The notes beneath the pieces are model-generated. The model worked only from the letters and a program-made list of their open reading frames with translations. It was not told the DNA's origin and did no database searches. A stretch of 5,297 nt of DNA from IMG/VR virus record IMGVR_UViG_2531839665_000011; one strand, given 5' to 3'. The stretch is from a virus (lineage: Duplodnaviria; Heunggongvirae; Uroviricota; Caudoviricetes). Shown here piece by piece: positions 1-5,297 of this stretch (position 1 is its first letter; each line of letters begins with the position of its first letter). Position numbers and translations under genes: made by a program.

Positions 1-1
1 C

Positions 2-973
2 AGCCAGCTTGCGGATGAGATGGCGGAGATGAAGACCACCATCACGAAACCCCGCAATGAAATCACACAGACGGTCAGTAAAACGCTGGAAGACCAGAGC
101 GCCACCATTCAGCAGATACAGCGCGTGCAGAAGGACACAAATGATGACCTGGCTGCGCTGTACATGCTGAAGGTTCAAAAAACGAAAGACGGCATTCCCT
201 ATGTGGCCGGTATTGGAGCGGGGATTGAGGATACTGATGGCCAGCCACTGAGCAACATACTGCTGCTGGCTGACCGTATCGCGATGATAAATCCGGAGAG
301 CGGCAACAGCACTCCGTTATTTGTGGCGCAGGGGAATCAGCTGTTCATGAACGACGTGTTCCTGAAGCGTCTGTTTGCGGCGAGTATCACGTCATCCGGC
401 AACCCCCCGACGTTTTCCCTGACGCCGGAAGGGAAGCTGACAGCCAGGAACGCGGATATCAGCGGAGCAATTACCGCGAATACCGGCACGCTCAATAATG
501 TCACCATTAACGAGAACTGTGTCATCAGAGGGAAACTGTCTGCAAACCAGATTGAAGGCGACCTGGTGAAGACGGTGGGGAAAGCCTTTCCCCGGAATAA
601 CAGTTATGCCAGCGGGACGGTAACCGTCACAGTTTACGATGACCAGGGCTTCGACCGGCAGATCATCATTCCCCCGGTGCTGTTTCGCGGGACGAAACAC
701 CAGAATTTCAACAGCCCGAATCAGCAGTCGTACTGGTATTCCACCTGTAAGCTGCAGGTGCTGAAGAACGGGGTTGAGATTTTCCATGAACCGGCAACGG
801 ATGTCAGCCGGGTGTTCTCATCGGTGATAGATATGCCGGCAGGGCGGGGTCATGTCACCCTGACGTTTAATGTGTCGTCGGCCGGTGCGAACAACTGGAC
901 GCCGACAACGTACATCAGTGATTTACTGGTTGTGGTGATGAAAAAATCCACAGCAGGTATCAGTATCAGCTGA
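2..973 (+). CDS. J: Phage tail tip host-specificity protein J (lambda J-like), C-terminal part; 5' end lies upstream of the window
   Basis: Reading frame is open from the first base of the window (no stop between 2 and the ATG at 20) to TGA at 971-973. Translation resembles the C-terminal receptor-binding region of lambda J as I recall it. Followed by a hairpin terminator and then lom and stf, the lambda gene order. Confidence 0.8.
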
Positions 974-1039: not shown

Positions 1040-1433
1040 ATGCGTAAACTTTATGCCGCCATTTTGTCCGCAGCCATTTGTCTGGCCGTATCCGGTGCGC
1101 CTGCATGGGCGTCTGAACATCAGTCCACGCTGAGCGCGGGGTATCTTCATGTCTCGACGAACGTTCCCGGCAGCGATGATCTGAACGGGATTAACGTGAA
1201 ATACCGTTATGAGTTTACGGACACACTGGGGATGGTGACGTCTTTCAGCTATGCAGGAGACAAGAATCGCCAGCTGACCCATTACAGCGATACCCGCTGG
1301 CATGAAGATTCCGTTCGTAACCGCTGGTTCAGCGTGATGGCGGGGCCCTCTGTGCGCGTGAATGAATGGTTCAGCGCGTATGCGATGGCGGGCGTGGCTT
1401 ACAGCCGTGTGTCGACTTTTTCCGGGGATTATC
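1040..1433 (+). pseudogene. lom: lom 5' fragment (Ail/Lom/PagC-family outer membrane protein), interrupted by IS insertion
   Basis: RBS GAGAGG upstream of ATG 1040. Signal peptide MRKLYAAILSAAICLAVSGAPAWA, then sequence matching lambda Lom up to ...STFSGDYLR. The ORF then runs into IS terminal sequence (ITVKEIGE, stop at 1463-1465). The rest of Lom resumes at 4015. Confidence 0.85.
1429..1433. repeat. Target-site duplication, left copy (TTATC); alternative reading is a 7-bp ATTATCT at 1428-1434
   Basis: lom sequence ggggATTATCT is present at the left junction and ATTATCTccgcgtaactgac at the right junction; the overlap is the duplicated target. Confidence 0.5.
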
Positions 1434-1482
1434 TGCGTATTACCGTGAAGGAGATCGGTGAGTAACATCGATGGAGATCGGT
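1434..1482. repeat. IS left terminal inverted repeat region
   Basis: TGCGTATTACCGTGAAGGAGATCGGTGAGTAACATCGATGGAGATCGG pairs with the reverse complement of the right end, TGCGTATTTTCATGAAAGGAGATCACTCAATAACTTCCATCGAGATCGG. Confidence 0.6.
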
Positions 1483-1518
1483 TCGTGTCACTTTCACAGA
1501 ACCGTTTTTAAATTACCT

Positions 1519-2268
1519 TCACTGATCTCCTTCGGTCAACGGAGATTGTATTTTCCGCATTGATTCTCCTTTAAGTTCGATCTTGATACTGCCATGAACC
1601 AGTCGATCTAGGATGGCATCCGCATGTGTGGAGTCTCCGATCATTTTGTACCAGTTTTCCACCGGCAACTGGCTCACTACGATGATTGAGCCTCGTTGGT
1701 ACATCAGATCCACTATTTCCAGCAGGTCGCTACGCTGTTCTGATGAGAGAGGTTCCAGCCCCCAGTCATCCAGAAGCAGCAGATCGCTATTATTCAGCCT
1801 GGTCAAAAGTTTGCTGTATCTTCCATCAGCATGCCCCTGATAGCACTGTTCCATCAGCGCTTTAAGGCGATAATAGTAGACCTTGTATCCCTGTCGGCAG
1901 GCATTATGACCAAGTGCACATGCCAGGAACGTTTTACCGCTGCCGGTGGCCCCGGTCAGTAAAATATTTTGTTTCAGGGTTAACCAGTTTCCCTGACTGA
2001 GTGAACGGATGAGGGCCCTGTCCAGCCCTCTATTGTTACGATAATCCAGCTTTGATAACTCAGCATTAAGTCTGAACCGTGCATGTTTGATCAGACGCTC
2101 TGCCTTCCTGTTTTCACGGCAGGTTAGTTCTTCTGCTGTCAGTAATGACAGGCGTTCTTCGAAGCCCAGCTCCTGGTATGTGCCCGGCTGAGCAAGTTGC
2201 TTTTTAAGCGCATCACGGAAGCCGGTGAGTTTAAGTGCGGTCAGTTGTTCGTAAAGATGATTCATCAT
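1519..2268 (-). CDS. istB: IS21-family helper ATPase IstB (AAA+/DnaC-like)
   Basis: 249 aa. Walker A GATGSGKT and Walker B LLLLDDWG. Start ATG at 2266-2268 preceded by GGGA, 11 nt after the istA stop. Confidence 0.9.
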   Translation of the reverse strand: MMNHLYEQLTALKLTGFRDALKKQLAQPGTYQELGFEERLSLLTAEELTCRENRKAERLIKHARFRLNAELSKLDYRNNRGLDRALIRSLSQGNWLTLKQNILLTGATGSGKTFLACALGHNACRQGYKVYYYRLKALMEQCYQGHADGRYSKLLTRLNNSDLLLLDDWGLEPLSSEQRSDLLEIVDLMYQRGSIIVVSQLPVENWYKMIGDSTHADAILDRLVHGSIKIELKGESMRKIQSPLTEGDQ

Positions 2269-2279
2269 TGGATCCCGTA

Positions 2280-3281
2280 TCAGTGGTAATACTCACTGCC
2301 GCGTACGTTTTCGTGTTCCATCGTGGATAACAGATCTGGTTTTGGATCCTGAACAGGTTGTTTATCCAGACCTTTTTCCAGGATCGATTTAATACCTGAC
2401 AGACGCCATACCTTTGTTTTCAGAGCTCTTGCACATGCTGCATTAAGTCTGGCTTTACTGTATTTTTTATGAAGGTTCAGGAGTCCAAGGCAGAAGCGAT
2501 AGCTTTGTTCCGGATGTGGACGAGAGTTCAGTATATGAAGCACATAACTATGAGTTTCACTGCCTATGTGCCCCGCCCATTCCAGAAGACGCTCTGGCGT
2601 CCAGGTGGCATGCTGTCGATGAGCTTCAGGCATGTGCTCGTTGCGGGTACTGTAGCCATAAGTACGCTTGCGCGGGTGCACAGCAACCTCCTGCCCCTGA
2701 TTGAAGAGTCTTACCAGTTCTCCGGAGATCCATGCTTCCAGTTGCTGGCCTAACAGCGAACATGGAACCGAGTAGTAATGTTTGTCGATTTCCACGTGGT
2801 AATCGGCATGAACTCTGACTTTCTTCACCAGGGTGTAACTGTAACTGGCTTCAGGAAGAGGCTTCAGTGCGGGTTTATCAAGCTGGATGAAGAGTTCTGC
2901 ACGTGAATAACCCAACTTCTGCATTATTTTGTTATTCAGTCTTTCCAGCAACTCCCGAATGCGCTGATTAAGCGATGCAAGGCTGTAGAAGATCTCATGC
3001 CTGATTCGGGCCATGATCCAGCGTTCAACAACCTGAACGCCAACTTCAGCTTTGGCTTTATCTTTCGGTTTACGTGGCCGCGCAGGCAAAACTGCGACAT
3101 TATAATGCTCAAGCATCTGCTGGTAGGTAGGGTTAACGTCAGGATCATACTTACATGCCCTGGATGTGGCGCTTTTCAGATTGTCCGGAACAACAAGTTC
3201 AGGAACGCCACCCAACCACTGGAAGCAGCGAACATGACTCATCACCCAGTCTTCAAGCTGCTGAGACCAGGTGGTCTCTGC
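2280..3281 (-). CDS. istA: IS21-family transposase IstA, C-terminal catalytic part (downstream of an in-frame amber codon)
   Basis: Same frame as the N-terminal ORF. Contains VVPDNLKS (second Asp of DDE) and [14 protein letters not shown] (Glu of DDE). Translation is continuous across the 36 nt between the amber codon and the first internal GTG/ATG ([25 protein letters not shown]). Confidence 0.75.
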
Positions 3282-3821
3282 CTATGTGTAACTTGATGCC
3301 CCGAGAACAGCTACGATGACCTGAGCAGTTCTTATTTCTCCGGTCTCAGGGTCGGTAACGCCAACGGTAGGTCCACAGTAATCAACGAAAAGTTTTTCGC
3401 CAGCTTTATGTACCTGACGCATTGATGGTGAAGTGGTTTTGAGCCATTCACGGTACATCCGGCAGTAATGGTTATAGCTGTAAAAACCGCCTGGATTACG
3501 CTCACAGTATTCTTCCCAGAGTAGCTGCAGCGTCACGCATTTATTACGCAGTTCCCGGTGTACTGTAGCCCAGTCAGGCAGAGAGTGCTTCTTCATCTTA
3601 ACCTGGGTCTGAAGGAACGCATGTTTTAGTTTTGTATCATCCCATCCTGTAGGTAAGGGCCACTGCTTTATGCCAAGTTGAGCCGCCCGATTAGCATATC
3701 TGGATACAACGGAAGGGGAGATTGCAAGACTACGACCAATTTGTCGATGGCTGAGTCCAACACCGTATTTAAGCCTAAGAATTTCTTTAAGTTTTCTCAT
3801 AGAAATTGGAACTGTTGGCAT
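3282..3821 (-). CDS. istA: IS21-family transposase IstA, N-terminal part (HTH and first catalytic Asp region), ending at an in-frame TAG
   Basis: ATG at 3819-3821 with AAGGA 7 nt upstream. HTH-like LSHRQIGRSLAISPSVVSRY. LFVDYCG resembles the first DDE Asp region of IS21 IstA. Ends ...GASSYT at amber codon (plus-strand cta, 3282-3284). Confidence 0.75.
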   Translation of the reverse strand: MPTVPISMRKLKEILRLKYGVGLSHRQIGRSLAISPSVVSRYANRAAQLGIKQWPLPTGWDDTKLKHAFLQTQVKMKKHSLPDWATVHRELRNKCVTLQLLWEEYCERNPGGFYSYNHYCRMYREWLKTTSPSMRQVHKAGEKLFVDYCGPTVGVTDPETGEIRTAQVIVAVLGASSYT

Positions 3822-3885
3822 AGGTATCCTTTACCGGAATGGCAAAAGATACAGATCAACACACCTGTGAAGTTCCAATAACATT

Positions 3886-3997
3886 GATGGAGATCACTGA
3901 ATAACAAAATGAGTCAAAAGTGATCTCCATCGATGTTATTCAGCGATCTGTTCAAATGTTATTACCCGATCTCGATGGAAGTTATTGAGTGATCTCC
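3886..3997. repeat. Iterated terminal repeats at the IS right end (putative IstA binding sites)
   Basis: Motif GTTATT-N4-GATCTC(C) as three direct copies at 3935-3950, 3958-3973 and 3981-3997 (23-bp spacing) plus one inverted copy at 3889-3905. Perfect 12-bp inverted repeat GATGGAGATCAC (3886-3897) / GTGATCTCCATC (3920-3931). Confidence 0.7.
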
Positions 3998-4014
3998 TTT
4001 CATGAAAATACGCA
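3966..4014. repeat. IS right terminal inverted repeat region
   Basis: Reverse complement matches the left end with a few mismatches and indels; ends ...AATACGCA. Confidence 0.6.
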
Positions 4015-4019
4015 TTATC
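4015..4019. repeat. Target-site duplication, right copy (TTATC); alternative 7-bp ATTATCT at 4014-4020
   Basis: Same lom-derived sequence as at 1429-1433. Confidence 0.5.
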
Positions 4020-4225
4020 TCCGCGTAACTGACAACAAGGGGAAAACGCATGATGTGCTGACCGGAAGTGATGACGGTCGCCACAGCAACACGTCTCTGG
4101 CGTGGGGGGCTGGCGTGCAGTTTAACCCGACCGAATCCGTGGCCATTGATATTGCTTATGAAGGCTCCGGCAGTGGCGACTGGCGCACTGACGGTTTCAT
4201 CGTGGGTGTCGGTTATAAGTTCTGA
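4015..4225 (+). pseudogene. lom: lom 3' fragment (C-terminal ~70 codons of Lom)
   Basis: Translation YLRVTDNKGKTHDVLTGSDDGRHSNTSLAWGAGVQFNPTESVAIDIAYEGSGSGDWRTDGFIVGVGYKF matches the Lom C-terminus; stop TGA at 4223-4225. The listed ORF start (GTG 3989) lies inside the IS end. Confidence 0.85.
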
Positions 4226-4251: not shown

Positions 4252-4279
4252 AGCCCGCCGGTTCAGGCGGGCTTTTTTG
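4252..4279 (+). terminator. Rho-independent terminator downstream of lom
   Basis: Perfect 8-bp stem AGCCCGCC (4252-4259) / GGCGGGCT (4266-4273), 6-nt loop, then a T-run. Confidence 0.6.
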
Positions 4280-4289
4280 TGGGGTGAAT

Positions 4290-5297
4290 ATGGCAGTAAA
4301 GATTTCAGGTGTACTGAAAGACGGCACAGGAAAACCGGTAGAGAACTGCACCATTCAACTGAAAGCCAGACGGACCAGCAGCACGGTGGTGGTGAACACG
4401 GTGGCCTCTGAAAATCCGGATGAAGCCGGTCGTTACAGCATGGACGTTGAGTACGGTCAGTACAGCGTCATTCTGTTGGTGGAAGGATTCCCGCCGTCAC
4501 ATGCCGGGACCATCACCGTGTATGAAGATTCTCAACCCGGTACGCTGAATGATTTTCTCGGTGCCATGTCGGAGGATGACGTCCGGCCGGAGGCACTGCG
4601 CCGTTTTGAACTGATGGTGGAAGAGGTGGCGCGTCACGCTGAGGAGGCGAAGAAGAATGCCGGAGAGGCGGAGACGTCAGCGAGGAATGCCGGCATATCA
4701 GCCAGTCAGGCAGAAGAGAGCGCTGCAAATGCTGACACTTCAGCAGGGGAGGCATCGGAGTCAGCCCGGCAGGCGGCAGAAAGTGCAGCCTCAGCAAAGC
4801 AGTCAGAGGATGCGTCCTCGTCCTCGGCTTCTGCGGCCGCTCAAAAAGCCAGTGAGTCATCACAAAGTGCAGCAGAAGCTGAATTGTCAAGAAAGACGGC
4901 AGAAAGTGCAGCCGGTAATGCAGCCAGGGATGCAACGACCGCAACAGAAAAAGCCCGGGAGTCAGCAGAAAGCGCACAGTCAGCGGAACAAAGCAGGATA
5001 GCGGCGGAAGAGGCCGTAAACCGAATCCCCACCGTGGTGGGACCTCCCGGGCCAAAGGGGGGAACAGGGGGCCCGCGGGTCCTCAGGGGCCGAAGGGTGA
5101 TAAGGGAGAGCGCGGTGACACCGGCCCTGTCGGGGCAACCGGCGAACGGGGACCGGCAGGTGATGCTGGTCCGGCAGGCCCGCAGGGGCCGAAAGGTGAC
5201 AGGGGAGAGCGGGGAGAGACCGGTCTGACGGGAAAATGCAGGTCCACAGGGTCCAAAGGGAGATACCGGTGCGGCAGGCCCGGCAGGCCCACAGGGA
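4290..5297 (+). CDS. stf: Side tail fibre protein Stf (lambda stf/orf401-like), N-terminal part continuing beyond the window; reading frame disturbed in the collagen-like region
   Basis: [17 protein letters not shown]...[25 protein letters not shown] matches the lambda Stf N-terminus, so ATG 4290 is the likely start rather than GTG 4284. Ala/Ser/Glu-rich segment, then Gly-X-Y collagen-like repeats from ~5040. Frame 0 hits TGA at 5226-5228 only because of frame slips at 5057-5071; the Gly-X-Y phase continues in another frame and returns to frame 0 after 5237. Confidence 0.8.
5040..5297 (+). repeat. Collagen-like Gly-X-Y triplet-repeat coding region within stf
   Basis: GPPGPKG (frame 0), then [56 protein letters not shown] (frame +2), then [19 protein letters not shown] (frame 0 again). 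Confidence 0.75.

Follow-up and report, generated by a model that had tools for sequence, protein, structure and literature searches.

A probably disabled ISEc12 copy in the lom gene of a lambda-like prophage of Escherichia coli

ISEc12, an insertion sequence (IS) of the IS21 family, has been described in the tssM gene of Escherichia coli ST131 (clade C strain EC958), where it generated a 5-bp target duplication, ACTGC, and split the reading frame, inactivating the gene (PMC10711316). Here we describe a copy of what can be named as the same element in lom, an accessory gene of a lambda-like prophage, in the viral record IMGVR_UViG_2531839665_000011. In what follows, the window is this whole stretch of 5,297 nt, which is the entire draft contig AFAA02000031.1 of assembly GCA_000194495.2. 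As in tssM, the duplication is of 5 bp and a reading frame has been split, the target in the window being lom. Intact copies labelled ISEc12 by the Prokaryotic Genome Annotation Pipeline (PGAP) resemble the window copy in their istA-istB gene order, in their TG...CA ends and in nucleotide identity (99.9% over 2,581 bp), whereas the window copy carries two changes in istA, a nonsense mutation (W180*) and a missense mutation (A183T). The insertion of ISEc12 in lom is already known in the sense that the public annotation of a complete genome records the same form: E. coli JB2, from a rabbit farm in Sichuan, has the same lom insertion with the same stop, both annotated by PGAP.

The closest solved structures are those of IstA and IstB of IS5376 from Geobacillus stearothermophilus (8b4h, 8q4d, 8q3w, 5bq5), an IS21-family element that uses the same two-protein system. 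With IS5376 IstB (8q3w, 5bq5) the alignment covers residues 26-246 (E 1.7e-27), and for IstA the catalytic and C-terminal regions can be aligned from residue 107 to residue 391 (E 3.4e-13), the D, D and E positions falling in register. IS5376 is nevertheless a distant relative and a different IS, its solved IstA chains counting 373-406 residues against 513 aa for the IstA of ISEc12. On the target side, lambda carries lom at the same position as the window does, between J and the side tail-fibre gene. Once the two parts of the window gene are rejoined, the encoded Lom is 91-100% identical to that of many records of lambdoid and Shiga toxin (Stx)-converting phages, and 47% identical to lambda's own Lom. 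In contrast to the phage alleles of 199 aa, the window lom is split and no complete barrel can be encoded.

ISEc12 within the lom gene

The limits of the element were defined by an alignment of six copies, namely the window copy with 15 flanking bases on each side and those of the JB2 chromosome, the AR_0089 plasmid and the OkiPb01716, IGC_RcoliRes and NCTC9112 chromosomes. The conserved block opens exactly at T1434 of TGCGTATT and closes exactly at A4014 of AATACGCA, which delimits an element of 2,581 bp (1434-4014) with 5'-TG...CA-3' ends and with istA and istB on the minus strand. Because the ends are fixed by the alignment at TG (1434) and CA (4014), the target duplication is of 5 bp, TTATC, with its left copy at 1429-1433 and its right copy at 4015-4019, as read in the window sequence, in the six-copy alignment and in an alignment to the empty site. 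With the ends defined independently, the probability that 5 flanking bases match by chance is about 1/1024. The original prediction, which had placed the two lom parts at 1040-1433 and 4015-4225 and the element at 1434-4014, proved correct to the base. For the duplication it had left two alternatives, of which TTATC with TG...CA ends holds. The other, a 7-bp ATTATCT with GC...GC ends, is out, as T1434 and A4014 are common to all six copies whatever their flanks; this longer version takes in the element's own last base (A) and first base (T). Other ISEc12 copies have their own duplications, of 5 bp (GCAGA, CTCGG, CCATG) or, for one copy (locus L005), of 7 bp (TGCTGGC), and the copy on the AR_0089 plasmid (locus L002) has none, its flanks being AATAA and AGTAT. 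No target consensus was evident among the six duplications TTATC, GCAGA, CTCGG, CCATG, ACTGC and TGCTGGC.

When the element was searched by megablast against 5,426 complete E. coli genomes, 2,410 records matched, with a best match of at least 99% identity in 2,220 of them, and ISEc12 matches were found in 1,909 of the genomes. The identity over 2,581 bp is 100% between the window element and the JB2 copy, and 99.9% with the other full-length copies among the matches listed. PGAP annotates the genes of the full-length copies listed as transposase and helper ATPase genes of the 'IS21-like element ISEc12 family'. The ISfinder convention asks for at least 95% nucleotide identity over the full length to the reference ISEc12; on the basis of the copies labelled by PGAP and of the published description, the window element can be named ISEc12. 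Its GC content (47.3%) differs from that of the two flanks (53.5% and 59.2%).

The gene that surrounds the element can be rejoined. Removal of 1434-4019, with one TTATC kept, gives 2,711 bp that align without a gap at the junction to the empty site of E. coli O157:H7 LSU61. The rejoined lom is 600 nt long and encodes a protein of 199 aa (...FSGDYLRVTDNKGK...), which differs by one residue, D47E, from the intact Lom of LSU61 (WP_001230428.1). The rejoined protein matches PF06316 Ail_Lom with 402 bits over positions 1-199 of 199 and ends in ...VGVGYKF; this full-length match and the C-terminal strand ending in F are those of the Ail/Lom/PagC/OmpX barrel family. A simple insertion, a Lom reading frame that becomes continuous upon rejoining and a product of the Ail/Lom family had all been predicted, and each of these claims is borne out: comparison with an intact lom shows that the flanks, which bear a duplication of 5 bp (TTATC), rejoin there seamlessly into the empty site.

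The insertion point lies after base 1 of codon 132. The 5' part of lom (1040-1433, plus strand) thus consists of codons 1-131 and the first base of codon 132, as given by the open reading frame (ORF) list and the alignment to intact lom, and the 3' part (4015-4225, plus strand) runs from the remainder of codon 132 to the stop codon (4223-4225). In JB2, PGAP describes the two as 'Ail/Lom family ... missing C-terminus' and 'Ail/Lom family ... missing N-terminus', respectively. The gene as found is therefore in parts of 131 and 68 residues, and the upstream fragment keeps the signal peptide and about the first two-thirds of the barrel. Since the cut in the eight-strand barrel follows residue 131 of 199, the insertion can soundly be expected to abolish the Lom function of this prophage, from which no functional Lom should be made. 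The 5' part continues into the IS as a chimeric ORF of 141 aa that terminates at 1465. At the other junction, an ORF of 78 aa (3989-4225) starts with GTG in the istA-proximal end of the IS and runs into the 3' part of lom; no promoter-like site was found near it, nor any sign of expression.

IS21-family anatomy and the disabled istA gene

The element has the organization of the IS21 family, with a long transposase gene of the Asp-Asp-Glu (DDE) type, istA, followed on the same strand by a gene for an AAA+ helper, istB. It also has TG...CA terminal inverted repeats and subterminal units that are more numerous at the istA end, and its length of 2,581 bp and its 5-bp duplication fall within the family ranges (about 2-2.7 kb and 4-8 bp, respectively). 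The istB gene (1519-2268, minus strand) is intact and encodes a helper ATPase of 249 aa from the first ATG, the PGAP start being one codon later (WP_001016257.1 in JB2). The protein matches the NCBIfam IS21 helper-ATPase equivalog NF038214 with 270 bits for a cutoff of 200, and Pfam PF01695 IstB_IS21 with 227 bits; a Walker A motif, GATGSGKT, begins at residue 106 and a Walker B motif, LLLLDD, at residue 163. Separated from istB by 11 nt and on the same minus strand, istA (2280-3821) is a pseudogene, its 513 codons being interrupted by an in-frame TAG, at codon 180. Of the two resulting IstA pieces, the N-terminal one matches the IS21 transposase equivalog NF033546 over profile positions 1-150 (114.6 bits) and the C-terminal one over positions 154-294 (172.9 bits), a score that by itself exceeds the cutoff of 160. 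The assignment to the IS21 family made in the original prediction is well founded, given the score of IstB and the match of both istA pieces to the family's transposase.

Both ends of the element contain repeat units spaced by 23 bp. The istB-distal terminal region (1434-1533) comprises the terminal inverted repeat, two direct units with the core GGAGATC at 1450 and 1473 and one inverted unit at 1524-1530, and the istA-proximal region (3877-4014) comprises the other terminal inverted repeat, four direct units (3922-4014) and one inverted unit (3877-3898). The GGAGATC core occurs seven times in the window for 0.72 expected, a number that none of 200 shuffled sequences reached, and six of the seven sites lie within the two terminal regions of the element. 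From what is known of IS21 we take these units to be predicted IstA-binding sites.

The stop in istA was absent from the original prediction. A plus-strand C to T change at 3283 turns TGG into TAG in the codon at 3282-3284 (minus strand), giving W180*, and a second plus-strand C to T change at 3275, 8 bp from the amber change, turns GCC into ACC, giving A183T. At both columns a C is present in all four intact copies of the six-copy alignment, and the istA gene of JB2 bears the PGAP note 'internal stop'. According to the alignment to IS5376 IstA (8q4d, 8b4h), the catalytic residues of the ISEc12 protein would be D147, D213 and E259. The stop falls between D147 and D213 and is therefore inside the catalytic core, and the intact DDE triad expected of a self-moving element is missing here, since the TAG separates D147 from D213 and E259. 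Having an in-frame amber codon in istA, the window copy should therefore be unable to make its own transposase. It is probably no longer mobile on its own; istB and both element ends are intact. The window copy thus appears to be a defective member of the IS21 family, to which it still belongs by descent.

Distribution of the insertion and of the istA allele

We then asked how widely the lom insertion occurs. JB2 is the only one of the 5,426 complete genomes with ISEc12 in lom. An exact match to the 141-aa chimeric ORF was also found in five further draft assemblies at NCBI; the left junction is present in all five, the right junction is also spanned in three, and these three all have the amber allele. 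In JB2 the interrupted prophage adjoins tRNA-Ser and hyaAB and carries sodC, and it also has a gene for an EspF-repeat protein and an espV remnant near tRNA-Ser (locus L001, 10568-12158). The plasmid pEc-JB2-4 of the same strain carries rpeA and IS100, a different IS21-family element (locus L019, 7146-10808 and 46198-47999); ISEc12 was not found in the first 50 kb of this plasmid, where the IS100 copy is present. Because of the EspF-repeat gene and the espV remnant in the prophage and of rpeA on the plasmid, the lineage that contains JB2 is probably a rabbit-type attaching-and-effacing E. coli.

There was no sign that lom is a hot spot for ISEc12, since the five other high-coverage hits lie in the tail-fibre gene, in tfa, in J or in the J-lom spacer. 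These insertions in neighbouring genes belong to homologous prophage tail regions of other strains (loci L004-L007). That they all have one orientation reflects a bias in the search, which joins pieces on one strand, and is not a biological feature. The ISEc12 copy of locus L007 is itself interrupted by an IS3-family element.

According to these results, we propose the following scenario. In a lambda-like prophage, a single ISEc12 copy would have entered lom by transposition, at codons 130-132 of its 199 codons; the staggered cut made in the target would have been filled in to yield the 5-bp TTATC duplication. The eight-strand outer-membrane barrel of the Ail/Lom protein would thereby have been cut and functional Lom lost. 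The W180* mutation would leave this ISEc12 copy unable to move by itself, and a small E. coli lineage, of which the rabbit-farm strain JB2 is a member, would have passed on insertion and stop together. We hold this scenario as a whole to be almost certain, and no evidence in the analysis contradicts it. Three points nevertheless limit it. The window is a short draft contig with clear errors near its ends, yet across the IS and both junctions it agrees base for base with the complete JB2 sequence. The name ISEc12 was taken from PGAP labels and from the published description rather than from the ISfinder reference sequence. Lastly, some low-level read-through of the amber codon may persist.

The quality of the contig is what makes an assembly artefact conceivable, that is, a multi-copy IS misjoined to a prophage in a short draft contig whose ends lie in repeated prophage genes. 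There are 18 differing positions between the window and JB2, none of them within the IS, and almost every one falls at a contig end (46-50 and 5057-5264). Among them are three insertions of one base, each in a G-run (5057, 5067 and 5233), which are the frameshifts of the tail-fibre gene, and mismatches clustered at both window ends (46-50 and 5157-5264). These end differences are likely to be draft-assembly errors or collapsed prophage paralogues. A misjoin at lom is hardly credible, however, when the complete JB2 chromosome contains the IS in identical form, with the same stop and both junctions, when the left junction recurs in five other assemblies, three of which also have the right one, and when such an error would not be expected to leave a flawless 5-bp duplication and an empty site that rejoins seamlessly. 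The same evident errors could cast doubt on the amber codon, in which case the window would contain a normal, active ISEc12. This is just as hard to sustain: the contig errors are homopolymer indels at the end whereas the amber codon is a substitution, and both substitutions recur in JB2, three other draft assemblies and six plasmids that other groups sequenced. Alternatively, the element could have arrived by recombination between two ISEc12 copies, through a deletion, an inversion or the resolution of a cointegrate, the two flanks not having been contiguous at the outset. IS21-family elements are able to form cointegrates, and recombination of this kind does happen to ISEc12, as illustrated by the AR_0089 plasmid copy, which lacks a duplication (AATAA and AGTAT). 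In the window, the flanks are the two halves of one gene, with an exact 5-bp duplication and a gapless rejoining, they are not seen to map to different loci in related genomes, and this origin, if marginally less improbable than the two errors considered above, remains very improbable. Direct transposition and a cointegrate that homologous recombination resolved afterwards would be indistinguishable by their footprint, and the latter would still amount to an insertion at this place.

The allele with both istA changes is not confined to the lom insertion. A query of 61 nt centred on the two substitutions gave 100% identical matches in seven of the 20,395 complete E. coli records searched, and no copy with only one of the two changes turned up in them, although the query could detect one. 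The seven records that carry the W180*/A183T allele are JB2 and six F-like plasmids of swine origin (China, Korea and USA). All six plasmids, loci L014-L018 among them, have ISEc12 inserted in one and the same parB-like gene; this leading-region gene is bordered by psiB and ssb in the plasmids that have retained both sides. The one full-length plasmid copy that we examined, in pCAU16175_2 (locus L014, 2186-4766), has its own duplication, CCATG. In four of the plasmids examined, ISEc12 is cut in turn by an IS3-family element. The dead istA allele is thus present at exactly two sites, each with a 5-bp duplication, lom (TTATC) and the parB-like gene (CCATG), which suggests either mobilization in trans or gene conversion. 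We tentatively propose, with somewhat less than even confidence, that the nonsense-mutant ISEc12 moved after it had been disabled, either by means of IstA supplied in trans or by a plasmid-borne IS21 cointegrate route. Indeed, movement after the mutation would need a transposase provided in trans, a cointegrate route involving a conjugative plasmid, or rare read-through. Alternatively, gene conversion between plasmid and chromosomal copies would give the same pattern, the two changes being 8 bp apart. If movement after disablement did occur, it would exemplify in nature the mobilization of an IS21-family element in trans by the IstA of another copy.

Prophage context and significance of the insertion

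The gene order in the window is J, lom and the side tail-fibre gene, with lom in two pieces. The window opens within the tail-tip gene J, the 3' end of which (1-973, plus strand) matches NCBIfam lambda_TipJ over profile positions 842-1163 of 1163 and is annotated as gpJ by PGAP in JB2. Two strong terminator-like hairpins on the plus strand, both detected by a consensus scan, flank lom. The hairpin of the J-lom spacer (991-1018), a pattern match, has a stem of 8 pairs followed by the T-run of TTTTTTATT, and that located 3' of lom (4252-4281) has a stem of 8 pairs, 7 of them GC, followed by TTTTTT. A phage 'moron' is an autonomous accessory gene located between essential late genes and bracketed by its own promoter and terminator. 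The hairpins on either side of lom would fit such a layout; the consensus scan gave no promoter-like site upstream of lom. The side tail-fibre gene (4290-5297, plus strand) is represented by its 5' part, which matches Pfam PF08400 phage_tail_N with 233 bits and is frameshifted in the window, the gene being intact and 1,314 nt long in JB2. The frameshifted stretch is the collagen-like (Gly-X-Y) part of this gene.

Taken by itself, the event described here is an ordinary one, a catalogued and very common E. coli IS having entered a non-essential accessory gene of a prophage, and insertions into prophage tail-region genes are common, as the cases of J, the J-lom spacer, the tail-fibre gene and tfa in other strains illustrate. 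The main value of the result is a correct annotation of the locus, and little beyond that. The exact insertion in lom could be used as a clonal marker of a small, probably rabbit-associated E. coli lineage of the attaching-and-effacing type. For the bacterium, the insertion removes one copy of a gene for an accessory outer-membrane protein. JB2 has many paralogous prophage tail regions, the window matching at ten places, and these regions may carry other lom copies; paralogous copies of other prophages may compensate for the loss.

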